Assembly (NCBI GenBank): GCA_016931955.1
Contig: JAFGDV010000012.1
Coordinates: 32,001 to 96,000, forward strand
Reading direction: 5' to 3'
Source: Candidatus Altiarchaeota archaeon
GTDB taxonomy: Archaea; Altiarchaeota; Altiarchaeia; IMC4; QMZM01
Length of the DNA stretch: 64,000 nt
Numbering within the stretch: position 1 is the stretch's first letter; every line of letters starts with the position of its first letter. The notes beneath the pieces are model-generated. The model saw only the letters and a list, made by a program, of their open reading frames with translations. It had not been told where the DNA came from and did not search any database. This document shows, one piece after another, positions 24,019 to 40,411 of the stretch. Both the position numbers and the translations under genes were made by a program.

Positions 24019-27000
24019 ATGCGAAAAACACTCTACTTGATAATAGGCATACTAATAACAGTCAGCCTAGCTAACGCACAATGTGGATATTCTGGAACAG
24101 GAGACTGGATTATAGATTCTAAGATTGATTGCAAGGACACATCGATTACATTAAACGGAAACATACTCATCAACACAGGAGGCTGGCTTAACGCAACCAA
24201 TGTGTTTTTCACATTCAACAACACTGGTAAAGCCAACGAAACAACAAGAGGCACGGCACTTGAAGACGGAGGCAACCTGACTCTTGTGGACTGCCTTTAT
24301 CAAAGCAACGAACCAGTTGGTGGAACGGATATTGAAGACAACCCAGGCGGTTGGACTAACACATGGATCAATGTATGGAATGATGTTGGAAATGCAGACT
24401 GTAGGATAATATTGAATAGAACAACCTTCAATGGCATAGGGATGCATCCCTTGAACATATTAAATAGTCGCTATGGCATCTACCCTATGGAGGGGCAGAT
24501 GTGGGTGGACAACTGCACATGCAATAAATCAGTTAACTGTTTCATTTCTACAGCAGATAGCACAAGAGGGGATAATAGAACAATTCGCTACTTGAAAAAC
24601 AACAAATTTGAGAACATAAGCACATTCCCCTATGTCTTCCTCTATGATGGAGACAGTGAAACAGAATACTTGGAAATAACAGGAAACACCTGGTATGGTA
24701 ACACATACCGTATGGGGACACTTGATTACACTGAGAAAGTTAAGATATACGACAACACCGCAAGCGGCACACCCAACTATGGTTTCAGCAACAACGGAGC
24801 AAGTGATGTCTTGATATACAACATGAACATTTCAGGACCGCCAACAGCAGTAGAGTTAAATTCAGGAAACCATGACTTTGAGATATACAATCTGAATATA
24901 ACAAACGGCGGAATAGGCTGCAACTACGGCAACCGCAACATAACAATACATGATGTAGACGTCACAGGTAAGAAAGCATTTGTAGGAAGCACCGCAGTCG
25001 CAGGAAGCCCAAACTACAACAACCACTTCTACAACATGACATACACATTTGTTTTCGGGGCAGACATAGTAGGCTACCTGATAGCCTACACAGGAGAAAA
25101 CTCAACAATAGAGGACATCACAATAGTTGGGTCTCCCACAGACCAGACAGCGATAACCACAAAACACGCCACAGGAGGGACTGGGGGAAGCGAATACTAT
25201 GTTAAAAACGTCACATATGAGGACATAAGCATAGACAACATCAACACAGGCATCCGGATGAAATACTTCAACGACAGCACATTCAGAGACATCAGGATGA
25301 CCAATGTGAACAGCTACAACATCTACTTCTCAGGGAACAACTACCGAAACAGATTCATCAACGTCACACACGACAGCGTTTTCTTCGACAACAACGACGA
25401 CGTATTCGACTACTACAATTATCTTTCGGTGAATGTGACCGGTGACAACGTGTGGGGGATAGAAGTGTATAATAGGACTAGCGATTTGTTAACGAGCGGA
25501 TCCACGACGACGGGGAAAGTCGAGAAACTAGAAGTCAACGAATTCAAGCAGACCAAGGTGGCGACAAATTTACAGTATCCGCACACGATCAAGGTAACAG
25601 GATTGGTGGCGGACACGGACTACAACGTCACAGTAAACGGAGCATACAGTCAAACAAAAAAGACAGACGCACTGGGAGTACTGACATTCCAAGAGAATAT
25701 AACAGACAACACACGGATGACACTGAAGGCGACAACAGACGTATACCCGCCATTCATCACGATCATTACACCACAGAACACAAAATACGCGCAAGGAGCG
25801 CTGACGGCGGAGATCAGCTTAGACGAAGACGGAGACTGGTGCGCATACTCACTAGAAGGAAACCCCAACAAAACAATGACAGGAGCAGGAAAAAGCTGGA
25901 CAACACTGCTCACAGAACTCGCGAAGATAGAGTACAGCATAAAGTTCTGGTGCAATGACACACAAGGACACATGGGGTCATCCGAGAAACGATATTTTAC
26001 GATAGTAGAATGCCTGGCAGACGGAGACTGCGGCATAGGACAATACTGCAACACAGGAGATGAGTGCAAAGACAAAAAAGGAGACGGAGCACCATGCAGT
26101 GCAGATAAGGAGTGCACGTCAAATGAATGCTGCCATTCAATATGTAGAAGTGTGTGCCCCTACTGCGGAGACGGATACTGCGACGGAGGAGAAACATGCG
26201 GAACATGCCCGCTAGACTGCACCTGCGCACCCGGAGGCGGACCAGGAGGAGGAACAGGAGGATCCGGAGGAGCCATCGGGACAGGAGGAATAGGGGCGAA
26301 CTGCTTCGACGGGATAATGAACCAGGGAGAAACCGGAATAGACTGCGGAGGACCCTGCAAGGCATGTCCTAGTTGCATGGACGGGATACTGAACCAAGGC
26401 GAGACCGGAGTAGACTGCGGAGGACCCTGCGGAGAATGCGCCATCGGAGCGACAGCGGCAAGCTGCTATGACAGAATAAAGAACCAGGGAGAACAAGGAA
26501 TAGACTGCGGAGGACCCTGCAAGGCATGCAAGACAGGGAACATATTACAGGAGAAATTCATGATAGGGTTAAATCATCCCAGTGAAGTGGAAGCAGGAGA
26601 CCACTACACAGTAGGAGTGACAGTAGAGAATACAGGAGACACCACACTAAAAGAACTGAACGTGAAAGTAGGCAGCCAGATAAAGACAACCGACTTAGAT
26701 CTGACAGAGAAAAAGACAGTGGAATTCCAACTAACCGCGCCACGAGAAGAAGGAGAATACATGATAAAAGTAGAAGCATACAATGGAACCCTAAGAGAAG
26801 AAGAACAAACAAAGATACAAGTAAAGCCAACCCCGCTGACGCTGAGAGCCACAACAGTAGACAACACAACATATATTATAACGCAGACCAATTACACCGA
26901 CGCAGTGATAGAATTAATAATCACAAGAGAAAACAAAACAGTATACTGGGACTACATAAGCGAAGAAGAACACATAACACAGATACAGGCAGGAAACTAC

Positions 27001-27175: not shown

Positions 27176-27427
27176 ATGTACATACCCTACCTAAACATAG
27201 ACATAGACCTAATATGGCTGCTAGTGCTAGGAAACATGGGAATGATACTAGCACTAATACTGATACTAATAGAACTACAACAAGTAAGAAAACTGAGGAA
27301 AGCATTCGAACACATGTTCGGACACTACGAAGAACTAATGGAAAAAGACACCAAAATATTCTGGAAAGAACTGGAAGAACTAAAATACATAATAGGAGCA
27401 AACAACAACAAATCAACTGAACAATGA
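27176..27427 (+). CDS. Small membrane protein (83 aa)
   Basis: Starts 1 nt after the surface-protein stop; one hydrophobic helix followed by a charged helical tail. Confidence 0.7.
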   Translation: MYIPYLNIDIDLIWLLVLGNMGMILALILILIELQQVRKLRKAFEHMFGHYEELMEKDTKIFWKELEELKYIIGANNNKSTEQ

Positions 27428-27437
27428 AGCATACAAT

Positions 27438-27541
27438 CTGACATAGGATACGTGTTCTACGAGATCGAGCTTGCTCTTACCGCCCCCATGCGGTCGACGA
27501 AGGGGATGGAAATAGCCGCAGACCAGGATCTCTAAGAGGAT
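27438..27541 (-). pseudogene. Decayed remnant 1 of the dolichol-P-mannose synthase 3' end
   Basis: Minus strand reads ILLEILV..(deletion)..FVDR..GGKSKLDLVEHVSYVR versus ILLEILV...FIDREGGKSKLNLGEHLSYVR in the intact gene (33884-34005). Confidence 0.85.
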
Positions 27542-27627
27542 AGGGATACAGCCGCCTGAGACACTAAAAGCCCACCGAAACATCTGATAACGGAGTTGTT
27601 ACTTTCTGGTGTAGCATTTTTAAACAT

Positions 27628-27649
27628 ATGTTACGTTATAATGTAACAT
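27628..27649. promoter_or_regulatory. Inverted repeat over the start of ATPase 1, downstream of a TATA-like TTTAAACA
   Basis: ATGTTAC-GTTATAAT-GTAACAT. Confidence 0.55.
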
Positions 27650-28928
27650 GGAACTACGTAAATTAGCCGAAGCCAACCCCTGGTGGCAGACCAAAAAAGT
27701 ACCACAAAACCTCCGAGGACGCGACAGACCCAAATACAGACTACTCCTAAAATCAATCACACAAAAAGAAGTCACAATAATAACCGGAGTCAGACGCTCA
27801 GGAAAAAGCACACTAATGTACCAGACCATAGACAACCTACTCAAAGAAAAAACACCCCCAAAACAGATACTATTCGTCAACCTAGAAGACCCAAGACTCA
27901 CAAACGACACACTAGACGACATATACGAAGCATACAGAAGCGGAATCAACCCCGACCAGAAGGCACACATCTTCCTAGACGAAATACACCGAAGAGAAAA
28001 CTGGGAAAAATGGGTCAAAAGACACTACGACCTCGGCACAGACTGCAAATTCACAATCTCAGGATCATGCTCATACCTCCTGAAAAAAGAATACTCAACA
28101 CTACTCACAGGCAGAAACCTCACCTTCGAAGTATTCCCCCTAAGCTTCCAAGAATACCTCACCTTCAAAGGCATCAACTTAGACGCCGAAGCACTGGAAA
28201 AAGACATCCTCCTAGAGAAACAGAGACACGAAATCCAGAAGGCGATGAACGAATACATGGAAGAAGGAGGCTTCCCAGACGCGTTCTTCAAAGAAGAAGA
28301 CTTCAAGAGACTGCTCCTAACACAATACTTCGACGACATAATATACAAAGACATCGTAGACCGCCACGAACTAAACAGCCGCAAAACAAGAGACCTTGCA
28401 CTATACCTCGCATCCAACATCACCTCCCCACTATCCCTCAGAAACATCAGAAACACGCTCGGACTATCCTACGAATCAATAAAAGACTACATCACATACT
28501 ACGCCGAAGCATTCCTCTTCTTCACAGTCGAACACTTCTCCTACTCCCTCAAAGAACAGAAGACACGCCCCTCAAAAGCATACTGCATAGACAACGGCCT
28601 CCGAAACGCAGTAAGCTTCAAGTTCACAAAAGACGACGGAAAACTAGCCGAAAACCTAGCCTACCTCCACCTAAGACAAAACAAAGACGACATATACTAC
28701 TGGAAAGACAAAAACGAAGTAGACTTCATAACAAAAAACCCCGACCACACACTAACCGCCATAAACGTCACATACACAGATGAAGTGGACGAAAGAGAAA
28801 TAAAGTCGCTCAAAGAATTCAAACAAAAACACAAAAAAACACAAGAACTCATAATAATCACAAAAAACACCCAAAAAACACAAGAAGAAATCAAGTACAT
28901 ACCACTATGGAAGTGGCTGCTAGAATAG
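27648..28928 (+). CDS. AAA+ ATPase, COG1373 type (AAA_14 + DUF4143), copy 1
   Basis: NPWW, Walker A GVRRSGKS, Walker B IFLDEIH, LTGR, GGFP, KAYCIDNG, EVDF and IPLWKWLL motifs. Confidence 0.9.
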   Translation: MELRKLAEANPWWQTKKVPQNLRGRDRPKYRLLLKSITQKEVTIITGVRRSGKSTLMYQTIDNLLKEKTPPKQILFVNLEDPRLTNDTLDDIYEAYRSGINPDQKAHIFLDEIHRRENWEKWVKRHYDLGTDCKFTISGSCSYLLKKEYSTLLTGRNLTFEVFPLSFQEYLTFKGINLDAEALEKDILLEKQRHEIQKAMNEYMEEGGFPDAFFKEEDFKRLLLTQYFDDIIYKDIVDRHELNSRKTRDLALYLASNITSPLSLRNIRNTLGLSYESIKDYITYYAEAFLFFTVEHFSYSLKEQKTRPSKAYCIDNGLRNAVSFKFTKDDGKLAENLAYLHLRQNKDDIYYWKDKNEVDFITKNPDHTLTAINVTYTDEVDEREIKSLKEFKQKHKKTQELIIITKNTQKTQEEIKYIPLWKWLLE

Positions 28929-28942
28929 AGACTAACCCAGAT

Positions 28943-28986
28943 ACTCCGAGGTTTAATTTACATTTGCCGCCCACGCGGTCGACGAA
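28943..28986 (-). pseudogene. Decayed remnant 2 of a dolichol-P-mannose synthase 3' end
   Basis: Minus strand encodes FVDRVGGKCKLNLG versus FIDREGGKSKLNLG, with mostly synonymous differences. Confidence 0.7.
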
Positions 28987-29041
28987 TAAACAAAATTTGC
29001 CGTTACAAGGGCAAAGTTTTAAAAGAAAATTCACCCACAAA

Positions 29042-29088
29042 TGCAATATTTATGCATAAATATTGCAATAGACTGCAATATTTAAATA
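29042..29088. promoter_or_regulatory. Perfect 26-bp palindrome plus TATA box upstream of ATPase 2
   Basis: TGCAATATTTATGCATAAATATTGCA (29042-29067); TGCA recurs at 11, 11 and 10 bp spacing; TTTAAATA at 29081-29088. Confidence 0.7.
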
Positions 29089-29108
29089 CAACAACCACTA
29101 TATATAAC

Positions 29109-30434
29109 ATGGACAAAAACACCCTCAGAGCAACAATAATATCACAAAAAAAAGAAACAAAAAAAATACTAAAACAAGAAAAAATCATAGAAAGAGAACT
29201 ACAAAAAGAAACAGAAAAACAACTAAAAAACAACCTCATCAAGATCACCACAGGCGTCAGAAGATGCGGAAAATCAACCCTCGCCCTACAAACACTCCAA
29301 GACAAAGAACACGCCTACATCAACTTCGACGACGAAAGACTCTACAAGATCACGACAAAAGACCTCGACACAATCCTAGAAACACTATATGAAGTATACG
29401 GAAACTTCAAATACCTCCTCCTAGACGAAATACAGAACATACCTGGATGGGAGCTATACGCAAACAGACTACAAAGACAAGGCCTCAACCTCATAGTAAC
29501 CGGAAGCAACGCAAAACTACTAAGCAAAGAACTTGCAACACACCTAACAGGAAGACACATCACACTTGAACTATACCCCTTCTCCTTCAGAGAATACCTA
29601 AGCTACCACAAAATCAGCCCCCAAAAAGAAGACCTACAAATCGCAGAAGGCATCGGAAAAATCAAAAAACACCTAAGAGACTACATAGAAAAAGGCGGAT
29701 TCCCCGAAACATACAAAATCAAAGACAACACAAGATACCTAAAAGACCTCTACAACTCCATCATAAACCAAGACATCATAAGCAGATACAACATAAAATA
29801 CGCAAACACGCTAAGAGAGATAATCTCCTACACCATCTCAAACTACGCAAGCCCAATAACCTACAAAAAAATAAAAAACATATTCGACATAAAAAGCCAA
29901 CACACAATAAAAAACTACCTCTACTACGCAGAAGAATCATACCTGATAACCCAGAGCCTACAATACACACACAAAATAAAAGAACAAACACGACTGCCCA
30001 AAAAAATCTACGCCATAGACACAGGCCTCATAAAAGCAATAGGATTCAAGGCATCAGAAAACACCGGCAGACTAATGGAAAACCTCATCGCAATAGAACT
30101 ACAGAGAAAAAAAACACAAAACCCCCTCCTAGAAATATACCACTGGAGAGACTACCAAAAAAGAGAAGTCGACTTCGCAGTCAAAGAAGGCCTAAAAGTA
30201 AAGGAACTAATCCAGGCATGCTACGACATCGAAGACCCAAAAACAAAGGAGAGGGAAGAAAAAGCATTGATAAAAGCCGGGAAAGAACTCAGATGCAAAA
30301 ACCTCAAAATAATAACCTGGGACCACGAAGAAACAGGGAGAATAGAGTATATCCCACTATGGAAGTGGCTGCTGCAGCCGACGGGTTTTGTCCCGGCGAC
30401 TGAGGAGAATGTAGTGCCTAACCCAACAAATTAG
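29109..30434 (+). CDS. AAA+ ATPase, COG1373 type, copy 2
   Basis: GVRRCGKS, LLDEIQ, TGSN, LTGRH, GGFPE, KIYAIDTG, EVDF and IPLWKWLL motifs; ATG at 29109 follows the TATA box. Confidence 0.9.
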   Translation: MDKNTLRATIISQKKETKKILKQEKIIERELQKETEKQLKNNLIKITTGVRRCGKSTLALQTLQDKEHAYINFDDERLYKITTKDLDTILETLYEVYGNFKYLLLDEIQNIPGWELYANRLQRQGLNLIVTGSNAKLLSKELATHLTGRHITLELYPFSFREYLSYHKISPQKEDLQIAEGIGKIKKHLRDYIEKGGFPETYKIKDNTRYLKDLYNSIINQDIISRYNIKYANTLREIISYTISNYASPITYKKIKNIFDIKSQHTIKNYLYYAEESYLITQSLQYTHKIKEQTRLPKKIYAIDTGLIKAIGFKASENTGRLMENLIAIELQRKKTQNPLLEIYHWRDYQKREVDFAVKEGLKVKELIQACYDIEDPKTKEREEKALIKAGKELRCKNLKIITWDHEETGRIEYIPLWKWLLQPTGFVPATEENVVPNPTN

Positions 30435-30473
30435 GCACCAAACCCAAAAAAAACACCCCGAATAGGGGAAAAC

Positions 30474-31796
30474 CTAAGGCAACCCCAATAAAGAGAAAAG
30501 CCACGCCGGAATATAATATATTACTATACTATCTGTTCCCCCTCTCCTCAGCTGATTCCTCGTCACCAAAACCGCCTCACCTACACCGTATTTTTCGCAG
30601 AATTTAGTTAGGCTACGAATGTCTTTCTTGTTAATGTAGGTCTGATACTTGACTTCGACAGGCAGCAGCCTTTTGTCCGCTAATACAATATCCACCTCAT
30701 CCTTCTGCGGCGTACGCCAGAAAGATATCTTCTGCAGACTACCCACTATCTGAGACTCTATGAGATGACCTGCTATCCCACCACCTTCAAGCATGCTAAA
30801 GGGTTGATCCAATAACGCCAACACAATAGATGGGTGGACTATGAACTGTTTCTTGCTTGCACGCACCTGCTTAGATACGTTGACAGAGTAGTTGTAGGCC
30901 ACCTTAATCAGAAAAGATTTCTCTAGTAGGCTTACATACTCTGCCGCCTGATTTCGGTTAATCCTGAGGTTGCCTGCTATGTTCACCAACTCAAAGAGTT
31001 GGGCGTTCGCCGCAGCCAGCAGCCTGAGCAATTCGTAGACCACGTTCTCATTCCCCCTGCTAGCCCGACTTATGTCTTCGACGGTTTTCTCTATCACCGA
31101 CTCCCGAATATACTTTTTAATGTATTCTTCGTCGTCTTCGTCAAACAGCTCAGGGAAGGCGCCCCTCTCCAAGTATTGGATGAACAGTTCCATGTATCTA
31201 GCCCTATTCGCAGCGAAATGCAGGTCATATTCTCGTATCATGTTTTCGTTCAAGGCTATCTCGTCCCTAAGACCAAAGTATCTCACAAACTCCCTGAAGG
31301 AAAGTACTGGCAGATGAAAGGATAGTATCCTGCCGGCAAGCGTTTCCCTGTATTTCCTCAGCTCAAGAGACGATGACCCGGAGACAAAAATCTTCAGGTT
31401 CTCTTCGGTGTCATAGACAGTCTTAAGGAGATCAGGGAAGTTAGGAAGCTTCTGCACCTCGTCGAGGAAAAGATACCTCATACCTTTCCCATCAGAAAAC
31501 TCCAGAAAGTAGTTGATTAGATCCCATGCCACCTCATACCTCTGGAAGTCTATGTCGTCGAAGGAGATATAGCAGACGTTCTTTTCTTCGGTCTTCACCA
31601 GAAGCTTCTTTATCATCTGCTTGAGTAAGACAGTCTTGCCTACGCGCCGCAGACCCACGACTGCCAGAATCTGCCTATTTTGACAGTATTTGAGTAGGTC
31701 TCCCATGAGGTCTCTCTCAAACTCTGGAGTAGTGAAGTCTTTTTTCTCCCACCACGGGTTCTGCCTGAAAAGCAGTCTACTGTGTCTTTCGTCCAT
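30474..31796 (-). CDS. AAA+ ATPase, COG1373 type, copy 3 (inverted)
   Basis: QNPWW, GLRRVGKT, LFLDEVQ, SGSSS, LAGR, GAFPE and EVDIV..PVEVKY motifs. Confidence 0.9.
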   Translation of the reverse strand: MDERHSRLLFRQNPWWEKKDFTTPEFERDLMGDLLKYCQNRQILAVVGLRRVGKTVLLKQMIKKLLVKTEEKNVCYISFDDIDFQRYEVAWDLINYFLEFSDGKGMRYLFLDEVQKLPNFPDLLKTVYDTEENLKIFVSGSSSLELRKYRETLAGRILSFHLPVLSFREFVRYFGLRDEIALNENMIREYDLHFAANRARYMELFIQYLERGAFPELFDEDDEEYIKKYIRESVIEKTVEDISRASRGNENVVYELLRLLAAANAQLFELVNIAGNLRINRNQAAEYVSLLEKSFLIKVAYNYSVNVSKQVRASKKQFIVHPSIVLALLDQPFSMLEGGGIAGHLIESQIVGSLQKISFWRTPQKDEVDIVLADKRLLPVEVKYQTYINKKDIRSLTKFCEKYGVGEAVLVTRNQLRRGGTDSIVIYYIPAWLFSLLGLP

Positions 31797-31830
31797 CGTA
31801 TTATCTATTAGGAAGAACATCCTTATAAAG

Positions 31831-31889
31831 TTTATGCACTAAAAACGTGCACAAAATAAAATTTTATGCACAAAAACTGTGCACAGAAT
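31831..31889. promoter_or_regulatory. Tandem 27-bp operator-like repeat upstream of ATPase 3
   Basis: TTTATGCACTAAAAACGTGCACAAAAT (31831-31857) and TTTATGCACAAAAACTGTGCACAGAAT (31863-31889), each an imperfect TGCAC..GTGCA palindrome. Confidence 0.65.
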
Positions 31890-31929
31890 CTAAAAAGCCA
31901 CAAGATTAAGAACGACGCTATTGATTATC

Positions 31930-32028
31930 TCCCCAAAAAACCAGGGAAAGCATTCAAACACTACGAATAAAAAAAGAACTGGAAAAACTGAAACATATAG
32001 TCTACATCACAGAAGAAGAAAAAAACTA
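31930..32028 (+). repeat. ~100-bp duplicated intergenic unit, partly derived from the 3' end of the 83-aa gene; second copy at about 33762-33858
   Basis: CCAGGGAAAGCATTC(A/G)AACACTACGAATAAAAAAAGA...CATCACAGAAGAAGAAAAAAA is shared by both copies. Confidence 0.85.
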
Positions 32029-32033
32029 AAGGC

Positions 32034-32092
32034 CGAGCTTGCTCTTACCGCCCCCATGCGGTCGACGAAGGAGATGGAGATGGCCGCAGACC
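32034..32092 (-). pseudogene. Decayed remnant 3 of the dolichol-P-mannose synthase 3' end
   Basis: 59-bp match to 27466-27524 with 3 mismatches. Confidence 0.85.
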
Positions 32093-32219
32093 CTCAACTG
32101 CCCCAGACCCCTTGCCACAGAATCCTCAGACATTATAAGGTACAGATGACAAAAAACATAGTATTCCATCAGATACAACCAACAATATTTAAACCCAGAA
32201 AACAAAAATAAGATAAAAG

Positions 32220-33602
32220 ATGACAATCATCGACTCCCTGAAAGCCCAAAACGAATGGTGGAAGACCGGGAAAGTACCCACAGCACTCCTAAAAAAAACC
32301 AAAAGAGAAGAATACAAGACAGCAGAAAAACTCCTCAAAGAAGAAAGAATAACCGCAATAACCGGACCACGCAGAACCGGAAAAACAACCCTCCAATACC
32401 AGCTCATACACCACCTCCTCCAAGAAACCGAACCCAACAAGATACTCTACATATCCATGGACGACCCATCACTAAGACCCCACACACAAAACCTCCTACA
32501 AGAAATACTGGAAACCTACTACAGAGAAATCCTCCTCGAAGAAAAAAGAAACACACAAGTCCACGTCTTCATAGACGAAATACACTTCCACACAAACTGG
32601 GAACAATGGCTGAAAAAATACTACGACCAAAGATACCCAATAAAATTCACGATAACAAGCTCATCCTCAGCCCACCTATCACAGAAGTCAAAAGAAAGCC
32701 TCGTCGGACGAATCATCGAAATACTACTACTCCCCCTAAGCTTCAGAAGCTACCTCGCCCTCACAGGAAAAAACCAGCTCACAGAACACTACAACAAACT
32801 CAGCCTCGAAACAATAGACGCAGACAAAAGATTCCAGCTGCTAAAACACGAAGAAGAAGCACGGATCATGTTCTCAAAATACCTCCTATACGGAGGACTG
32901 CCCGAGTCCATAAAAACAGGAGAAATACACCTATGGCAGGAAAAACTAATATCAGACGTCCTAAGAAAAGTTATATACAGAGACATCACAGGACTCTACG
33001 ACGTCAGAACACCCACAAAACTCGAAGACCTCTTCGTCCACCTCACATACAACACCAGCAAAACATTCTCATACACCTCCCTCTCCCAAAACCTCGGCAT
33101 AAGCACAGAAGCCATAATAAACTACACACGCTACCTCCAGGAATCCTACCTCATAGGCGAACTACGACTCCACACAAAAAGCATCGAAAAAAGCCTCCGA
33201 GCCAACAGAAAATACTTCATAATGGACTGCGGACTACAGAACGCCATAACAAAAACCACCGACCTAACCGAAGCCAACACAGGCCCACTAATAGAATCCA
33301 CAATCGAAAAACACCTCTACGCATACGCCAAAAAAGAAAACCACAACCTACACTACTGGAGAGAAAAAGAAGAAGTAGACATAATACTAGACACCAAAAA
33401 AAAGACACTACCAATAGAGGTAAAATACAAAAACAAGATAAAAAAAGAAGACATGCGAGGACTACTCAAATTCATGGACAAATACAAAACAGACAAAGGA
33501 TACATGATAACCAAAGACCTCCTCCAAAAACAAAAAATCAACGGAAAAGAAATCCAACTAATACCAGCATGGCTATTCCTACTAGCAATACCCGCCGCCT
33601 AA
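32220..33602 (+). CDS. AAA+ ATPase, COG1373 type, copy 4
   Basis: QNEWW, GPRRTGKT, VFIDEIH, ESLVGR, GGLPE, KYFIMDCG and EVDII..PIEVKY motifs. Confidence 0.9.
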   Translation: MTIIDSLKAQNEWWKTGKVPTALLKKTKREEYKTAEKLLKEERITAITGPRRTGKTTLQYQLIHHLLQETEPNKILYISMDDPSLRPHTQNLLQEILETYYREILLEEKRNTQVHVFIDEIHFHTNWEQWLKKYYDQRYPIKFTITSSSSAHLSQKSKESLVGRIIEILLLPLSFRSYLALTGKNQLTEHYNKLSLETIDADKRFQLLKHEEEARIMFSKYLLYGGLPESIKTGEIHLWQEKLISDVLRKVIYRDITGLYDVRTPTKLEDLFVHLTYNTSKTFSYTSLSQNLGISTEAIINYTRYLQESYLIGELRLHTKSIEKSLRANRKYFIMDCGLQNAITKTTDLTEANTGPLIESTIEKHLYAYAKKENHNLHYWREKEEVDIILDTKKKTLPIEVKYKNKIKKEDMRGLLKFMDKYKTDKGYMITKDLLQKQKINGKEIQLIPAWLFLLAIPAA

Positions 33603-33855
33603 AAAAAAAAGACTGAGACAACAGCCTGCTTCTTTCCCGCCTGAACATATAAAAAGATCACTATTAGCATGATCATGGTTATACAATTCAGAAACCAAGT
33701 GACTGAACCCTAAGACCTGAAAGAAATAATAGGAAACAACAACGAATCAGCTTATAATCTATCCCCAAAAAAAAACCAGGGAAAGCATTCGAACACTACG
33801 AATAAAAAAAGATCCAGGAAAAAACCAGCCTGCATCACAGAAGAAGAAAAAAAAA

Positions 33856-34572
33856 CTACTTCAGATACAGGCGGAGACAATGCCTGACATAGGATAAGTG
33901 TTCTCCGAGATTAAGCTTGCTCTTACCGCCCTCTCGGTCAATGAAAGTGATCGGGACCTCCTTGACTCGGGAATAGCGGCCGCGAACCAGTATTTCTAAG
34001 AGGATCTTGAAGCCGACCGGGTTAAGGACGACGCCGTCAATAACTTCTCTGCGGAAGAAGAAGAAACCAGAGACCGGATCCCTGACAGAGGTGAGGGGGC
34101 GAGCCAAGAGGACAGCACCCCGAGAGGTTAGACGACGACGAAGAGGCCAATTCTGGATACAACCGCCACGGACATAGCGGCTGCCGACGGAGACATCGGC
34201 TTCGCCCCGCAAAATAGGAGCCACCAAAGCAGGAATAGCGTCTAGGGGATGAGAGAAGTCGGCGTCCATGACGCCAAATATGCCGCCCGAAGCCTGAGAG
34301 AAGCCGGCGAGGACGGCAGAGGAAAGACCTAATTTGCCGGAGCGGACGATGATTTTAAGATCGGGGTAAGGGCTTTGAAGAGAACGGACGACTTCGGCGG
34401 AGCCATCTGGGCTGTTGTCGTCTACGATGATCAGTTCACCGCGGAGGTCGTTGCGGGAAAAAACCTTGAAGAAGGCAGGAATAAGCTTGGATAAGTTCTC
34501 GCGTTCATTATAGGTGGGTACGACGACTGAGACCCTGGAGTTCTCCAAGGGAGGGAAAGAAGTCCTATGCAT
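33856..34572 (-). CDS. Dolichol/polyprenol-phosphate mannose synthase (GT2, DPM1-like)
   Basis: VPTYNEREN, VDDNSPDGS, KLGLSSA, MDADFSH, GSRYV, DPVSGFF, GFKILLE and EVPITF.DR..GKSKL motifs. Confidence 0.9.
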   Translation of the reverse strand: MHRTSFPPLENSRVSVVVPTYNERENLSKLIPAFFKVFSRNDLRGELIIVDDNSPDGSAEVVRSLQSPYPDLKIIVRSGKLGLSSAVLAGFSQASGGIFGVMDADFSHPLDAIPALVAPILRGEADVSVGSRYVRGGCIQNWPLRRRLTSRGAVLLARPLTSVRDPVSGFFFFRREVIDGVVLNPVGFKILLEILVRGRYSRVKEVPITFIDREGGKSKLNLGEHLSYVRHCLRLYLK

Positions 34573-34634
34573 GATAAAGGATATAAACAGATACGGAAAT
34601 AAATAAGTTTGCTGTTATGAGGTGGGGATAATCT

Positions 34635-34697
34635 ACCCACGGATGCAATAGTTATGCATAGATATTGTAATAGACTGCAGTATTTGGATACGATAAT
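34635..34697 (+). repeat. Orphan degenerate copy of the ATPase 2 promoter/operator (29033-29095)
   Basis: 63-bp ungapped alignment with 11 mismatches. Confidence 0.85.
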
Positions 34698-34816
34698 AAA
34701 AGATCACTGAGGGATAATGGGAGGGGCTGCTAGGATAGAGGAGTTGATACCCCAGTAGTCGTCGAGGACAAAGGAGAAGAAAGCCCCACGCATTTTACGG
34801 AACATACACGGTAATG

Positions 34817-34859
34817 TACTAAAAATAGTAAAAAAAATGATATTTTACTAAAAATAGTA
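34817..34859. promoter_or_regulatory. Duplicated operator upstream of the AbiE-type operon
   Basis: TACTAAAAATAGTA (a TACTA-N4-TAGTA inverted repeat) at 34817-34830 and 34846-34859. Confidence 0.7.
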
Positions 34860-34887
34860 TTTATAGGTGAAAAACACATAACATAAC

Positions 34888-35730
34888 ATGCTAGAACTGA
34901 TCTACGGGACAAAAACAAAGACCAGGATACTGGAAGAGCTCGCAACAGCAGGAAAACCAAAGACCAGAAAAGAACTAATAGAGCTGACAGGATGCGGCAC
35001 CAGGGGAGTATACGAGCAGACAGAGGAACTAATAACCCTAGGCATAGTCAAAGAAACCAAGAAAGGCTGGAAAAAACTAGAGCTAAACCCAGAACACCCA
35101 CTATACCAGGACATCAAAAACACGGCACTCGCAGCAATAGACTACAAAAAAAACCTCATAAAAAACCTCCTCCAGACAATAGACCAAATACTAGAAGACG
35201 ACTACTATATCGGATTCTACACAGCAGCCACAAAAAAAATCACACCAATCGACTACACACCAGAGAAACACGTATACAAGGTACTGGACACAGAATACGA
35301 AAAAAAAATAAAGAAAATCAAAACATACGACAAACTAAGGGAAATAGACATACAAAAAGAGAAAAAAGGGTTGATTAAGGCAGTATTCCTAAAATGCCAG
35401 AAAATCCCGGAAGACGTGACAAGAGAAGAAATACAAAACCAGGAAGTGTGGATAGCAAGCACGGAGAGGGGTATAGTAGAATGCTTCACCCCAGAAAACA
35501 AATACTTCACCAGATACGGAAGCTGCCTGGCCCTGCTACAAAACAAAATAGAAAACACAATAGACGAAAAACAACTACTGAAAATAGCAGGAGAACTCAA
35601 CATAAAAAAAGAACTAGTTAAAGTCATGGGCAGCTTCAACCACCACCTCAAAAAAAGACTATTCAACGCAGAACCCAACACAGAAGAGATCAAAGAAGTC
35701 AAACAGGCGATAAACACGGTATTAGGATGA
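34888..35730 (+). CDS. wHTH protein, putative AbiEi-like type IV antitoxin
   Basis: N-terminal winged-helix pattern (TRILEEL..KTRKELIELTG...ELITLGIV); WIASTERGIVEC resembles the AbiEi C-terminal T-x-E-R motif; ATGA overlap with the toxin gene. Confidence 0.6.
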   Translation: MLELIYGTKTKTRILEELATAGKPKTRKELIELTGCGTRGVYEQTEELITLGIVKETKKGWKKLELNPEHPLYQDIKNTALAAIDYKKNLIKNLLQTIDQILEDDYYIGFYTAATKKITPIDYTPEKHVYKVLDTEYEKKIKKIKTYDKLREIDIQKEKKGLIKAVFLKCQKIPEDVTREEIQNQEVWIASTERGIVECFTPENKYFTRYGSCLALLQNKIENTIDEKQLLKIAGELNIKKELVKVMGSFNHHLKKRLFNAEPNTEEIKEVKQAINTVLG

Positions 35731-36686
35731 AGACAACATACACGACAGAAGAAAAAGAAGGGATCCTAGGCATAATAGAAACCTGGGGGAGAGAACAGAT
35801 AACCCAAGACGTCTTCAGAAAAATACAACTACAGACAGGCATACCTTCAGGACTGATAGAGACAACATTCTGGCACATAGACACACTCTATCAGCTGAAA
35901 AAACTCGAAAAACCACCCATATTCAAAGGAGGAACCTGCGTACAATGCTACATCCCAGCAGGCCTGCAGAGAGCATCAAACGACCTAGACTTCAATTCAA
36001 GGATAGCCAACCCAGCCACCATAAGGGAGCAGATAAAAAAACTAAACAAAAAACTGCTAAACAAAGGAAACGCCACACAGATAAAAAAATACGGCGAAAG
36101 AATAAGCTATGGAACATTCGACTACCAGCTAAAAGACGAAATATCCGGTGTTATAACATTCAACAGGAGAATGCCCTCCCGCCTTGGAGAATACGTCAAA
36201 GCAGGCGAACTAGAGGTTCAGGCAAAAAACATGAAAATCCAGGTAAACTACAAACACGCCTGGATGCCCGCAATAAAGACGATAGACAAAAAACCAAGAT
36301 TCTTCATACTCGAACACCAAAAAATGAAAGGATTCACCTACCCAAGCTCAAGCCTGAACGACCTAATCGCCGACAAAATACTTGCAACAACAAAAGAAAC
36401 GGGGAGAGAACGATTCAAAGACGTATACGACCTGATGACTCTGTTCATGCAAAAATACGAGAAAAAACAGATACTCGAGAAACTGGAGAGGATACTGGAG
36501 AAGAAAGGGCAACAACCAGAGACCACGATAAAATCCTCGGCAACGAATATCGGGAGATTCACAGAAAAAAGCCTCGAAGCACAAGGATTCAAAAGCCTCG
36601 TATGCAAAGACGGCAGAAAACTCATAGAAAACTGGGAAACCAACTGCTTAAAGCTAACAGAGAAGATGAACTCGTTGCTGAGATAG
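35727..36686 (+). CDS. AbiEii/AbiGii-family nucleotidyltransferase toxin
   Basis: IFKGGT...RASNDLDF, ADKILA and RFKDVYDL motifs. Confidence 0.85.
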   Translation: MKTTYTTEEKEGILGIIETWGREQITQDVFRKIQLQTGIPSGLIETTFWHIDTLYQLKKLEKPPIFKGGTCVQCYIPAGLQRASNDLDFNSRIANPATIREQIKKLNKKLLNKGNATQIKKYGERISYGTFDYQLKDEISGVITFNRRMPSRLGEYVKAGELEVQAKNMKIQVNYKHAWMPAIKTIDKKPRFFILEHQKMKGFTYPSSSLNDLIADKILATTKETGRERFKDVYDLMTLFMQKYEKKQILEKLERILEKKGQQPETTIKSSATNIGRFTEKSLEAQGFKSLVCKDGRKLIENWETNCLKLTEKMNSLLR

Positions 36687-36863
36687 AGGAGTTGATCCCA
36701 TGGAAGACCCCTTGAGGAGGAGGCTTCTCGATTAATCTTGATTAAAGATCTCATGGTATAACCTTTAACTTCAATAGGGAGGTAGGGGTAGGGTGATATG
36801 CGTATTTATATACTTATGTTCACTATAGTATACAAAATATGAGGAATTTGTTCACCGAATAAG

Positions 36864-38150
36864 ATGGAGCACAGAAAAATCATAATACAATGGAAAGAAT
36901 ACACACCACCGAAGACACAACCCAGAGAAGTGAACATCGACCCCACAACAGACTTCATCACCACAATAACAGGCCCAAGAAGAGCAGGCAAAACATACCT
37001 CTGCTACCAGCTAATGAACCACCTAATAGACAAAGGAACCCCCCGAGAAAACATCCTATACGTGAACTTCGAAGACGAAAAACTCATAGGGGCTAAAGCA
37101 GCAGACCTCGAAAAACTGATGAACACATTCCAAGAACTAACAGACACCAACCCAGAACACAACACCTACCTCTTCCTCGACGAAATACAGAACGTCAAAG
37201 ACTGGGACGCATGGATAAGGAGAATACACGACACCCAAAAAAACGTGAAACTAATACTCACAGGCTCATCCTCCAAGATGCTAAGCCGAGAAGTCACAAC
37301 AAAACTACGCGGCAGAATACTAAACCACGAAGTATACCCCCTAAGCTTCAAAGAATACCTCACATGGAAAAACACCCCATACAACCTAAAAACACTAACA
37401 GAAAGCAGAGACAGAATCGAAGTAAAAAAACAATACAATGAATACCTGACAAACGGAGGCTACCCCACAATAGCACTCAACCAAGCACCCAGAGAACAGA
37501 TACTCCAAAGCTACTACGAATCAATGATATTCAAGGATGTGGTAGAAAGACACAACATCAAAGACGTCAAAAAACTGCGCATACTCGCAAAACTACTATT
37601 CGAATCCACATCAAAAGAGATGTCCTACAACAGGCTAGCAAACAAACTCAAATCCCTCGGATTCACAGCAAGCAAAAACACCATAATAGAACACATCAGC
37701 CACTTCGAAGACGCATACCTATTCTTCCAGAACATGAAACACGAGTACTCCATCACAAAACGGATGGGTGCGATAAAAAAGATCTACTGCATAGACAACG
37801 GACTACTCAACACAGTCAGCTTCAAATTCGCAGAAGACACCGGAAAACTGATGGAAAACCAAGTCTACATAGAACTAAAACGCAGAAACAAACAAGTCTA
37901 CTACCACAAAGACAAACACGAATGCGACTTCCTCACACAAGAAAAAAACAAGATCACATCAGCCATACAAGTAACCCACACACTAAACGACGAAAACGAA
38001 GACCGAGAAATAAACGGCCTACTTGAAGCCATGAGAACCCACAACCTACAAGATGGAACCATCCTCACCTTCGAACAAGAAGAGACAAGAAAAAAAGACG
38101 ACAAAACAATACGGATCACACCAGTCTGGAAGTGGCTGCTGGAGACATGA
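36864..38150 (+). CDS. AAA+ ATPase, COG1373 type, copy 5
   Basis: GPRRAGKT, LFLDEIQ, TGSSS, LRGR, GGYP, KIYCIDNG, ECDF and PVWKWLL motifs. Confidence 0.9.
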   Translation: MEHRKIIIQWKEYTPPKTQPREVNIDPTTDFITTITGPRRAGKTYLCYQLMNHLIDKGTPRENILYVNFEDEKLIGAKAADLEKLMNTFQELTDTNPEHNTYLFLDEIQNVKDWDAWIRRIHDTQKNVKLILTGSSSKMLSREVTTKLRGRILNHEVYPLSFKEYLTWKNTPYNLKTLTESRDRIEVKKQYNEYLTNGGYPTIALNQAPREQILQSYYESMIFKDVVERHNIKDVKKLRILAKLLFESTSKEMSYNRLANKLKSLGFTASKNTIIEHISHFEDAYLFFQNMKHEYSITKRMGAIKKIYCIDNGLLNTVSFKFAEDTGKLMENQVYIELKRRNKQVYYHKDKHECDFLTQEKNKITSAIQVTHTLNDENEDREINGLLEAMRTHNLQDGTILTFEQEETRKKDDKTIRITPVWKWLLET

Positions 38151-38221
38151 GATCGAAAGAAAAACAGACCAGAGAGTATCTTTGTTGACCAAAATTTATA
38201 AATAATGGACAACATAGATGT

Positions 38222-38296
38222 AAAGTGATAACATGGGACCGCGAAGAAAAAGGGAGAATAGAATACATACCACTATGGAAGTGGCTGCTGGAATAA
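38222..38296 (+). pseudogene. Orphan C-terminal fragment of a COG1373 ATPase
   Basis: Encodes KVITWDREEKGRIEYIPLWKWLLE* versus KIITWDHEETGRIEYIPLWKWLL in copy 2; last 32 bp match the end of copy 1 with 1 mismatch. Confidence 0.85.
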
Positions 38297-38493
38297 AGAG
38301 GTTATTTCATAGATGGCTGCTTGAGGCAGAAAGAGAAGAGCCCAGAAGAGAGCAAGGTAGTGCCCTGGAAAAGGCAAGATATAAAGGAGGTGAGGGGAAA
38401 TAGGGGATATAGTAGGGGCTCCGATGAATGCATCCCAACGAGGATAGAGAGAAAAGCTTTTAATCCCATATCGACAGAATACTTTAAGAGAAG

Positions 38494-38694
38494 ATGAAAT
38501 GCGCACTGGATAAGGAGGAAGGAATACCAGATAAGAGAAGATGCCCCAAAAAGATGCTCAACGGACCATGCGGCGGACAACTAAAGGGAAAATGCGAAGT
38601 AAACCCAGGATTAGGGTGCGTGTGGGTGCAGGTATATGAGGAACTCAAGAAGAGGGGGAAAGAAAAAATACTCAAGGAGCTGTGCATGAGATGA
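38494..38694 (+). CDS. metV: MetV-like (MTHFR C-terminal) Cys-rich subunit, short form
   Basis: RCPKKMLNGPCGG..GKCEV....CVW motif; overlaps the metF start. Confidence 0.7.
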   Translation: MKCALDKEEGIPDKRRCPKKMLNGPCGGQLKGKCEVNPGLGCVWVQVYEELKKRGKEKILKELCMR

Positions 38695-39569
38695 CGCTGA
38701 GAAGAGAATTAAAGAAAAAATTCACTTATACGGGAGAACTAGAACCCGGGAAGATTTCAGAGTTAAAGGAGATAGTAGAGGAAGCCAGGAAACTGAAGAA
38801 GTATGTTACGGCATGTAATGTAACAGACAACCCGCAAGCTTATGCGTACATAAGCAGCCTGGCGGCGTCGTATATGATACAGGAGAAGGCCGGGATGGAG
38901 GCCATATATCAGCTGACTTGCAGAGACAGGAATCGATTAGCGCTGACTTCAGAGCTGCTGGGGGCGGCGGCGCTGGGGATAAAGAATGTGCTGGCGTTGA
39001 CTGGAGACTACACTACGTTGGGGGATATGCCTGAGGCGAAGCCTGTATTTGATTTAGATGCGTGCCGGCTAGTGCATATGATCAAGGAGATGAACGAGGG
39101 AAGAGATATAAAGGGGAACCGAATAGAACCTAGGACGGAATTCTTTATCGGAGTCGCAGCGAACCCCAACGCTATACCATTAGAACCGGAGATACTGAAG
39201 CTGGAGAAGAAAGAAAAAGTGGGGGCGGAATTCGTGCAGACTCAGGTAGTGTATGAGATGGAGATAGTAGAGAATTTCCTGGAGGCAACGAAGAACGTGG
39301 AGATACCGATACTGATCGGGGTGTTCCCGCTGAGATCATACGGGGTAGCGGAGTACTTCGACAAGAACGTGCCCGGAGTCAAGGTACCCGAAAAACTGTT
39401 GAAGGAACTGAAGGAGATAAAGGAGGCTGGGGGGGCTCGGGAGGAATACGATAAAGTCAATGAAAGATTCTTTTCCGGACTAATAAAAGGGATAAAGAAG
39501 ACTGATGCGAGGGGATGCCATATAATGGCGGTGAATTACTCGGAGATTGTGGAGAAGCTGGTCGTCTAA
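38682..39569 (+). CDS. metF: Methylenetetrahydrofolate/methylene-H4MPT reductase, MetF family
   Basis: NVTDNP, QLTCRDRNRLAL, NVLALTGD, AKPVFDLD, QTQ and GCHIMAV motifs. Confidence 0.9.
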   Translation: MHEMTLRRELKKKFTYTGELEPGKISELKEIVEEARKLKKYVTACNVTDNPQAYAYISSLAASYMIQEKAGMEAIYQLTCRDRNRLALTSELLGAAALGIKNVLALTGDYTTLGDMPEAKPVFDLDACRLVHMIKEMNEGRDIKGNRIEPRTEFFIGVAANPNAIPLEPEILKLEKKEKVGAEFVQTQVVYEMEIVENFLEATKNVEIPILIGVFPLRSYGVAEYFDKNVPGVKVPEKLLKELKEIKEAGGAREEYDKVNERFFSGLIKGIKKTDARGCHIMAVNYSEIVEKLVV

Positions 39570-39907
39570 GTTTTTTCCATAAGGATCTTTTTGATGATGG
39601 GTCTGACCACTGGTATGTCCTCCTTCACGACAAGCCACACCCTCTTAGGGTCCATCCCAAAGTAGAAATGGATAGCCTTATCCCTCATACCCGCTATATC
39701 CCGCCAAGGCACTTCAGGATGCTTATCCTTCACAGGAGAAGGCACGTTTTTTGCCGCTTCGCCTATGACCTCGACACATCGGATGACGGCTTATTGAGTC
39801 TTCTCATCCCCTAAAAACACGTCATAAGACATATCTCTGATGAATTCCTCGGCAAGCTCCATGTTCTCCAACATATCCTTCAGATAGATTGACACGTTCC
39901 TTTTCAT
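39566..39907 (-). pseudogene. HepT/DUF86 HEPN ribonuclease toxin with an in-frame stop
   Basis: Manual translation MKRNVSIYLKDML...KTQ*AVIRCVEVIGEAAK...VPWRDIAGMRDKAIHFYFG; Rx4H motif intact; TAA at 39791-39793; ATGA overlap with MNT. Confidence 0.85.
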
Positions 39908-40197
39908 ACATAAACCGCCTCCTCTAGGACTCTATCCCGCAACTCAGCGCGAAGATCCTTTTTAGGAACAACATCAGCCTTAACGCCGAGAACATCACCC
40001 AAGAAATTCTCCAAGCCAACAATCCTGAGAAGACTCACCGGCTCCTCGAATTCGACGAGGAAGTCAACATCACTTGACTCATCCTGCTCACCCCTGACAT
40101 AAGACCCAAAAACACCGATACTCTTAACCATAAACCTCCTCGAAAGCTCAGCCCTATGCTTAGACAAAGCAGTCCTAATGTCACCAAGGGTTACCAT
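39904..40197 (-). CDS. Minimal nucleotidyltransferase antitoxin (MntA-like)
   Basis: GVFGSYVRGEQ...SDVDFLVEF motif; 97 aa; upstream of the HEPN gene. Confidence 0.9.
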   Translation of the reverse strand: MVTLGDIRTALSKHRAELSRRFMVKSIGVFGSYVRGEQDESSDVDFLVEFEEPVSLLRIVGLENFLGDVLGVKADVVPKKDLRAELRDRVLEEAVYV

Positions 40198-40411
40198 ATT
40201 AGGATATTGGACTTAGAAACTATAAGCCAAGGAGATGCCATATAATGGCGGTGAATTACTCGGAGATTGTGGAAAAGCTGGTTTAGAAAAAAAGCTCTCC
40301 AGACCATTTCTTTAGTTGGGTGAAACCCCTTTCAGAGAGAATATTGCCTGCAGCCAAAAAGACCTTGAGGAGAAGGTGATTAAGGATTATGCAGCCTGAT
40401 ATAATACTGTA

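Follow-up and report, generated by a model that had tools for sequence, protein, structure and literature searches.

Candidate defense and toxin–antitoxin cassettes between duplicated gene ends in a Candidatus Altiarchaeota genome

Cassettes and duplicated gene ends at the locus

The DNA described here is a stretch of 64,000 nucleotides (the window) from a Candidatus Altiarchaeota archaeon, corresponding to positions 32001–96000 of contig C23 (JAFGDV010000012.1) in a metagenome-assembled genome (MAG; GCA_016931955.1, labeled G000) of 1.55 Mb in 46 contigs, which is 92% complete and has a G+C content (GC) of ~47%. Between window positions 27.4 and 40.3 kb, it carries seven small cargo modules: five PDC-S01/COG1373 ATPases, one AbiE pair and one MNT-HepT pair. 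They lie among genes whose 3′ ends are partly duplicated, and in every such case the 3′ end of the intact gene abuts the cargo, with the orphan copy on the cargo's far side. The order of genes runs from a 1063-aa surface protein and an 83-aa gene through ATPase1–3, ATPase4, the glycosyltransferase gene dpm, an AbiEi-like gene, AbiEii, ATPase5, metV and metF to HepT, MNT and mch. An earlier note, made from the letters of this stretch, had listed the same seven modules in 13 kb, and all of them were recovered by profile matches.

Duplicated ends were located by self-comparison of the window and then aligned. The dpm end occurs three times: an orphan copy A (27433–27524, minus strand) adjoins the intact 83-aa gene in an attL-like position, a middle copy B (31935–32092) consists of an 83-aa end fragment (31935–32025) and a dpm end fragment (32034–32092), and copy C (33877–33951, minus strand) lies inside intact dpm (33856–34572, minus strand), where it forms the 3′ end of the gene. 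The left arm of copy C is a further orphan 83-aa end fragment (33770–33853, plus strand), which is 83.5% alike to the fragment in copy B. The intact 83-aa gene itself (27176–27427, plus strand) encodes a membrane/coiled-coil protein that matched no Pfam or NCBIfam family, and it is the docking gene, with a 3′ end that is duplicated in G000 as well as in other genera. The 3′-end repeat of metF (39510–39562 within the intact gene, family D12) recurs as an orphan at 40230–40282 on the same plus strand, with 51 of 53 bases equal, and the two copies enclose a 667-bp insert holding the MNT-HepT pair. The orphan metF end is followed by what appears to be the original stop, and intact metF reads one codon into the insert before stopping; since the insert begins 3 nt past the repeat, the present metF stop lies inside the 3′ end of HepT, on the other strand. 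The repeats in the window measure 53 nt for the metF end, 59–92 nt for the dpm end and 84–91 nt for the 83-aa end. The three dpm ends, the single duplication of the metF end and the fragmented 83-aa end had all been described correctly in the earlier note.

Its statement that nearly every boundary contains a duplicated 3′ end went too far: extra copies occur at five of the nine module boundaries (dpm and 83-aa ends twice each, metF and ATPase ends once each), and none was found at the boundaries ATPase1/ATPase2, ATPase2/ATPase3, dpm/AbiEi and AbiEii/ATPase5. Similarly, only one of the two supposed orphan ATPase ends coding for WKWLLE plus stop is a true orphan. This ATPase2-like 3′ end (38219–38296, plus strand; families D2 and D7) comprises 25 codons and a stop and matches at 72% over 29 aa (E 3e-10). 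The other belongs to ATPase2 itself, which has lost the stop after WKWLL and reads in frame through ~20 extra codons toward the convergent ATPase3 (30375–30434). The WKWLL-coding end was also considered as a recombination site at the DNA level and dropped, because the synonymous codons of the 21-mer vary among the 8 of 22 family genomes that have it, the pattern expected from protein-level conservation. In addition to gene ends, a remnant of an ATPase2-like promoter/operator lies at 34627–34696 (plus strand; family D8, 81%).

The three dpm-end copies carry traces of their history. An exact 18-nt core is common to A, B and C and has only these three occurrences in the window. To the left of the core, 29 of 33 bases agree between A and C, B being unrelated to them; farther left, B matches the 83-aa fragment preceding C. 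To the right of the core, 36 of 40 bases agree between A and B, and the same 20-nt deletion sets both apart from C. Copy B is thus a recombinant of the outer copies, with its left arm from C and its right arm from A, and as such the product expected from recombination between them, whether by unequal exchange or by re-entry of a circle. Upstream of the window (C23:11494–15604), a 696-aa beta-propeller gene has its 3′ end represented by five copies, and all four orphans share states that differ from the intact gene. The recombinant copy B and these shared orphan states together argue that arrays grow by the copying of existing repeats. Between intact ends and orphans, 91 mismatches were counted over 762 nt in 11 overlapping comparisons, distributed as 27, 25 and 39 over codon positions 1, 2 and 3 and accompanied by indels, which looks as though a copied piece of resident sequence had decayed, and not like an orthologous end brought in from outside and kept under selection.

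As for the cargo, four of the ATPases are encoded on the plus strand, namely ATPase1 (27648–28928), ATPase2 (29052–30434, with a likely start at 29109), ATPase4 (32220–33602) and ATPase5 (36864–38150), and ATPase3 (30474–31820) on the minus strand. All five match AAA_14 (E 2e-41 to 8e-35) together with DUF4143, and all five match the PADLOC PDC-S01 model PDLC04787 over their full length (E 2.6e-57 to 2.4e-118); a role in defense is a candidate database label. Their pairwise identity is only 24–37%, so they are not recent duplicates. ATPase4 is bracketed by 31935–31977 and 33770–33812 (43 nt, 97.7%), and ATPase5 forms a cassette with its promoter and the orphan ATPase 3′ end (36686–38393, plus strand). 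The AbiE pair (34888–36686, plus strand) consists of AbiEii (35727–36686; Pfam E 2.2e-16, PADLOC E 5.6e-14) and a 280-aa AbiEi-like protein (34888–35730), which has no Pfam family and matches PADLOC AbiEi only weakly (5e-4). In the MNT-HepT pair (39566–40197, minus strand), MNT (39904–40197) is intact (NTP_transf_2, E 1.6e-19) and HepT (39566–39907) is interrupted in frame by a TAA at codon 39, though the C-terminal 74 aa remain HepT-like at E 9e-20; the pair does not consist of two intact genes.

The earlier note had credited most modules with a TATA-like box and an operator-like repeat of their own. TATA-like boxes were indeed seen 5′ of every module but one of the seven; counted from the start codon, four boxes are placed at −29 to −33 (at −30 for ATPase1) and those of ATPase3 and ATPase5 at −10 and −60, respectively. 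Palindromes or repeats lie upstream of ATPase1, ATPase2, ATPase3 and AbiEi; the promoter/operator of ATPase2 (29025–29094, plus strand; repeat family D8) contains a perfect 26-nt palindrome (29042–29067).

Recurrence in the genome, in other genera and in a marsh relative

The same architecture is found at further sites in G000. A census of the cargo families by phmmer yielded 31 open reading frames (ORFs) in the genome and 21 testable modules, one module at a contig edge having been dropped; 383 genes of similar size served as controls, and a flanking repeat was defined as a direct repeat of at least 25 nt within 1.2 kb on both sides. Such repeats flank 10 of the 21 cargo modules as opposed to 3 of the 383 controls, all three of which are tandem paralogues. 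This is more than chance would give; the earlier note had proposed to look for an enrichment of end duplications beside such cargo. The census modules are clustered, several of them in one array, and do not represent independent events, and the count of 10/21 was kept though an AbiE pair on C24 was scored as repeat-less with a 48–49-nt repeat present there. Among the six C23 ATPases tested, ATPase4 alone is individually flanked by repeats.

Elsewhere in the genome, the repeats are 36–130 nt long; over all sites, those of the window included, the inserts measure 0.67–6 kb. Between the copies of the 696-aa gene end upstream of the window lie an MNT-HEPN pair and three MNT-HepT units, two of which are tandem duplicates (73% over 873 nt), as well as genes which we take, from reading only, to be HicAB-like. 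An AbiEii 3′ end, in 100-nt copies, surrounds a ParE-family pair; the final 12 codons of a transporter gene recur on both sides of an AbiE pair; and a 6-kb block of several cassettes is framed by copies of the end of a 354-aa gene. MNT-HepT and AbiE pairs on C39 and C31 are likewise flanked by repeats. The repeats on C39 and C28 copy 5′ ends or promoters instead of 3′ ends, and the C39 case makes 3′ ends the rule rather than a law. The C28 pair was set aside as ambiguous, as it involves a gene 5′ end among tandem paralogues.

The cargo also differs from the rest of the genome in composition. The coding-strand AT skew has a median of 0.44 in cargo ORFs vs. 0.13 in the 1504 other ORFs, GC is 0.42 vs. 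0.48, and in 20 of the 31 cargo ORFs the skew lies at or above the 96th percentile of the genome. This supports a common foreign or separately evolving gene pool. The exceptions, ATPase3 (whose skew of 0.05 sets it apart from the other four ATPases), MNT and dpm, hint at several sources. Genome-wide, cargo ORFs have A+C-rich and T-poor coding strands, with an AT skew of 0.4–0.6 and a negative GC skew, which results in long stop-free alternative frames, such as 27683–28783, 32255–33616 and 35945–36715. The GT2 glycosyltransferase gene dpm has a GC of 0.54 vs. 0.41–0.44 around it, and its best relatives are found in other families of the order at 51–61%, compared to 36–45% within its own family; dpm may itself have been acquired. 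With respect to carriers, a scan of viral contigs with the ATPase alignment returned one locus at 34% identity and leaves viruses unsupported in this role. A scan of genome contigs with AbiEii returned one locus at 65% identity, in a Candidatus Altiarchaeota MAG.

The cassette architecture at the 83-aa gene recurs in two other genera. Homologues of this gene are present in 7 of 22 family genomes. In G002 (C28:1–14000), three full or near-full copies and two 3′ fragments are interleaved with AbiE, PIN/VapBC-like and DUF4258 genes, a PDC-S01-type ATPase and a HicB-like gene. In G004 (C88), a TumE pair and a PIN-like gene are enclosed by the 83-aa gene, an orphan 83-aa end and an orphan copy (120 nt, 96%) of the 3′ end of an epimerase gene that is convergent. 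Depending on its left boundary, the duplicated 83-aa stretch takes in the whole gene, the last 28 codons or the last 18 codons, and this whole range is found within the one array of G002. In G006, which belongs to a different genus, the 83-aa gene has no cassette and its convergent neighbor is 18 nt away. Judged by their first 30-odd residues, the VapBC-like pairs beside the 83-aa gene in G002 and G004 look closely alike. ATPases occur in or beside arrays in G000, G002 and G013, and AbiEii is present in 16 of the 22 family genomes; at 28 AbiE loci of other genera, 36–91-nt repeats bracket the AbiE pair in four cases and a neighboring cassette in two. The claim of the earlier note that small self-contained cassettes accrete at gene 3′ ends is borne out by this recurrence elsewhere in the genome and in other genera.

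Population data were drawn from four runs in the form of assembled (Logan) contigs, including the source run and the marsh runs X2 and X3, which stem from other studies. In the source run, depth is even over the region (~37–63 per bin, mostly 40–45). The marsh runs contain a relative at 2–4x depth whose core genes metF, mch and RACo are ~88–91% identical to those of G000. Its AbiE pair is 95–99% identical, with 2/351, 2/204, 3/262, 6/235 and 9/197 mismatches. In the search for junctions, joints with a shorter side of fewer than 30 letters were ignored as paralogues or other organisms. A 430-nt contig of X2 joins the AbiEii stop (36685) to position 38394 and thereby skips ATPase5 and the orphan ATPase end; up to 122 of its letters are unplaced, far too few for ATPase5. 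The identity of the marsh AbiE pair and the contig lacking ATPase5 indicate that cassette content varies by lineage and that AbiE has moved or swept recently. Furthermore, a 451-nt contig of X3 starts in MNT, crosses the orphan metF end and reaches mch, so the MNT-HepT insertion is shared with the marsh relative and is older than the split of the two lineages. The marsh contig lacks the 130-nt spacer (40282–40411) that separates the mch stop from the orphan metF end.

Other genomes are too distant to serve as empty sites. Among 31 genomes of species representatives, dpm matched in 22 (best 61%) and metF in 26 (best 64%), and the 12 representative loci that were fetched have neither mch nor a cassette beside metF. 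A scan of metagenome contigs with MetF returned nine loci (best 60%) without synteny, and G001, which belongs to the same genus, has a DNA identity of only 64%. The comparison with relatives that the earlier note had suggested has hence delivered one difference in cassette content, the marsh relative without ATPase5, and no empty site for any of the repeat-flanked inserts.

Mechanism and competing explanations

In G000, a single match to the tyrosine recombinases (PF00589) was obtained, a 403-aa protein at C38:51245–52456 and thus on a contig other than C23. It reaches 72 bits with the XerA model, whose cut-off is 220, and adjoins aIF2-beta and ORFs without a family, including one of 951 aa; the region may be a small integrated element. 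TnpB, DDE_Tnp_1, resolvase, RVT_1, rve, Y1_Tnp and Cas1 gave no match in this 92% complete genome. In five relatives with cassettes, all eight tyrosine recombinase matches fall outside the array contigs, and G002 is without any such match. The absence of a recombinase in cis, which the earlier note had reported for the window, is confirmed by these searches, and for the solo recombinase elsewhere in the genome for which it had proposed to look, the weak XerA-like match on C38 is the only candidate.

The repeats have little in common with each other. No 8-mer is common to at least three of the 10 repeat families, and seven of eight repeats fold no better than shuffled sequences (z −1.3 to +0.7), the exception having a z of −2.8. 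The lack of a shared motif, of hairpins and of a nearby recombinase, together with the variable boundaries, argues against an integron and against a single site-specific enzyme. The earlier note had compared the locus to an integron-like array, a likeness that is not upheld in view of the missing IntI, the largely hairpin-free repeats, the cassettes' own promoters and their mixed orientation. It had also proposed a trans-acting or host-recombination mechanism. A single site-specific enzyme acting in trans is made unlikely by the missing 8-mer and the variable repeat length, and host recombination is favored. Homology-anchored recombination of incoming DNA, its alternative, comes close to the explanation given next.

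The explanation which we favor, with some reservation, is insertion with long target duplication followed by repeat-mediated accretion through host recombination, with addictive cargo being retained. Self-contained addiction or defense cassettes would have entered just 3′ of host genes, each insertion leaving a direct duplication of the target of variable length (~36–250 bp), with an unbroken host gene before the cargo and an orphan copy of the gene's end beyond it. The two copies could subsequently serve as portable homology, and recombination between copies would add units by unequal exchange or by excision and re-entry of a circle, either within a cell or between sibling lineages. The order 83-aa gene/A/ATPase1–3/B/ATPase4/C-dpm may exemplify the resulting array. 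A recombinase encoded by the element would not be needed, and enzymes of host recombination, repair or replication are the most likely engine, since most of the cargo is not a DNA nuclease. The first duplication may have arisen by template switching or by Campbell-type entry of a circularized fragment. As inserts flanked by repeats would easily be deleted, only addictive or useful ones would persist, which could account for the bias of the cargo toward toxin–antitoxin (TA) and defense genes.

Several observations weigh against this explanation. The repeats are precisely where the source-run contigs end, so that the order across them is given by the MAG assembly alone, and a 4.6-kb circle (27474–32063) at chromosomal depth fits the contig graph equally well. 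No contig with an excision or circle junction was found in the four runs, rare forms being invisible in contigs. No genome with an empty site for a repeat-flanked insert was found among the species representatives, the metagenome contigs and the marsh relative, and the sole empty site seen, that of ATPase5, has no long flanking repeat, just a doubtful match of ~13 nt. The MNT insertion, shared at ~10% divergence and with its toxin broken, is an old event and gives no sign of present activity. Flanking repeats occur at only 4 of the 28 AbiE loci of other genera, many of which are cut short. Moreover, there is one tyrosine recombinase on C38 in a MAG that is 92% complete, and mobile elements are often unbinned. 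Lastly, copies A, B and C with their exact 18-nt core also resemble the attL, attP-like and attR sites of site-specific recombination.

This last resemblance belongs to an alternative in which the cassettes are integrase-less satellites, or decayed remnants akin to cis-mobilizable elements (CIMEs), placed at gene 3′ ends by a tyrosine recombinase in trans and enlarged by tandem accretion at att sites. Besides the attL/middle/attR mosaic round the core, this alternative fits insertion at 3′ ends with restoration of the gene, the targeting of the 83-aa end in three genera and the presence of one tyrosine recombinase of unclear type beside family-less genes in an incomplete MAG. It appears unlikely in view of at least 10 unrelated repeat sequences without a common motif, a duplication whose length varies at one target up to the whole 83-aa gene, inserts as small as 667 bp, and the lack of an integrase fragment near any cassette of G000 or on the array contigs of the five relatives. 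No integrase-bearing element with these att-like ends was found in G000 or on those array contigs, the MAGs being incomplete. If the cargo instead drove its own insertion, cassettes would be captured at breaks made by the PD-(D/E)XK-type DUF4143 domain. A published listing counts DUF4143 among the PD-(D/E)XK families (PMC3424549), ATPase3 and ATPase4 show weak Hjc and Mrr_cat matches, ATPases lie in or beside arrays of three genomes, and the same idea has been put forward for restriction–modification (RM) systems (PMC2853133). The idea nevertheless seems improbable, as most repeat-flanked cargo (MNT-HepT, AbiE, ParE-family, PIN and TumE) consists of RNases or nucleotidyltransferases and only one of the six C23 ATPases, ATPase4, is individually repeat-flanked. 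The same signature on cargo that is not a nuclease also speaks against any need for the cargo to break DNA.

Two further explanations dispense with mobility. Local tandem duplication and deletion of resident genes with subsequent divergence would be in line with the tandem MNT-HepT duplicates next to each other outside the window and with orphans that resemble decayed resident sequence; it is very improbable given that the ATPases share only 24–37% identity, that the cargo departs from the genome in AT skew and GC, that unrelated types of cargo lie between copies of one gene end, and that in the marsh relative AbiE is more similar than the core genes and ATPase5 is absent. The breaks of source-run contigs at the repeats would suit an assembly artefact of a metagenome bin, a notion that is hardly credible, since the repeat copies differ by substitutions and indels, depth is even across the region, the junction of MNT, orphan metF end and mch is reproduced in contigs of two other studies, and like architecture is seen in genomes of other genera that were assembled independently.

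Insertion with long target duplication, the reading preferred here, could also be taken further. In this bolder and rather doubtful form, a dedicated pathway independent of any recombinase would capture cassettes at the termination zones of docking genes, chiefly the 83-aa gene; the copied 40–250-bp ends would act as address labels, and circles would enter the same docking gene again, in other cells as well as in other genera. If true, such a pathway would be a functional analogue of integrons that works through host recombination or template switching rather than IntI and attC.

Related systems and genomic setting

The movement of defense and TA genes without a nearby transposase or integrase is an open question, and the literature on "insertion with long target duplication" goes back to 2000, reportedly to Nobusato et al. 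(Gene 259:99), with no mechanism given so far. The lineage described here offers many events from which a mechanism might be read, with several cargo families, recombinant middle copies, a docking gene that is reused and a relative with other content. The architecture is real, recurrent and statistically enriched, and is best filed as long-target-duplication insertion in which the cargo, the archaeal host, the arrays and the conserved docking gene are new.

In the portion used here of the report by Furuta, Abe and Kobayashi (2010; PMC2853133), this class is characterized by repeats of >30 bp, an insert of <20 kb without a mobility gene, a single-copy empty site and restriction (R) plus modification (M) cargo, and no archaeal case is among those that passed the screen. 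As a common cause the authors suggest DNA breakage by the cargo, and they propose a cycle of insertion, amplification via the repeats and release (PMC2853133). In the present genome, repeats likewise exceed 30 bp and inserts stay below 20 kb with no mobility gene in or beside them; the cargo is not R plus M and comprises PDC-S01 ATPases, AbiE and MNT-HepT as well as, elsewhere, ParE-family, PIN and TumE genes. The RM case and the present one share small addictive units without a mobility gene between target copies of >30 bp, a variable repeat length, some repeats over gene 3′ ends and a significant enrichment of flanking repeats (PMC2853133). In contrast to it, TA pairs and PDC-S01 ATPases are found here in an archaeal host, multi-unit arrays at a docking gene recur across genera, and the comparison with an empty site, which defines the class, is missing (PMC2853133). 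The earlier note was silent on this published parallel for RM genes, which so far is known from bacteria.

CIMEs and tandem accretion in streptococci provide another point of comparison: there, integrase-less DNA lies between att-like repeats at gene 3′ ends. The three-copy arrays with a middle hybrid site are similar, whereas the repeats of CIMEs have fixed boundaries and serve a known integrase family as att sites, and the present cassettes have many unrelated repeats of variable length, for which neither G000 nor the array contigs of its relatives yielded a cognate integrase. Integrons, which have been reported in archaeal MAGs according to the part of a preprint considered here (bioRxiv 10.1101/2022.02.06.479319), resemble the locus in having arrays of one- or two-gene cassettes, often TA modules, separated by repeats. 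They differ in that no IntI lies beside the array in G000, the repeats are ends of host genes rather than attC hairpins, and the cassettes have promoters of their own and occur in both orientations. TA pairs that vary between core genes among isolates have been termed "genomic islets," with addiction proposed for their retention (Van Melderen and Saavedra De Bast, 2009; PMC2654758). Unlike the present case, neither flanking duplications of gene ends nor arrays are described in the part of that article used here (PMC2654758). Word searches of the open-access literature, which were not exhaustive, returned no report of this pattern for archaeal TA or defense cassettes.

Within contig C23, positions 12–72 kb form a low-GC block (34–44% GC) with surface and glycosylation genes, and the cassette locus sits at the right edge of these ~60 kb. 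The block is best explained as a flexible island and the stretch of cassettes as its right-hand border zone. The host genes metV (38494–38694, plus strand) and metF (38682–39569, plus strand) precede the MNT-HepT insert, and mch (40412–41260, minus strand; MCH, E 6e-63), also a host gene, bounds the variable region on its right. Beyond window position 40.4 kb, GC climbs to 49–55% and genes of Wood-Ljungdahl type are found, namely mch and RACo; genes that are presumably CdhD/E-like, judging by sequence reading alone, lie there as well. On the opposite side of the locus, the gene for the 1063-aa surface protein contains tandem Cys-rich repeats of ~162 nt (73% identity) at 26235–26528, and the contigs of the source run break there too.

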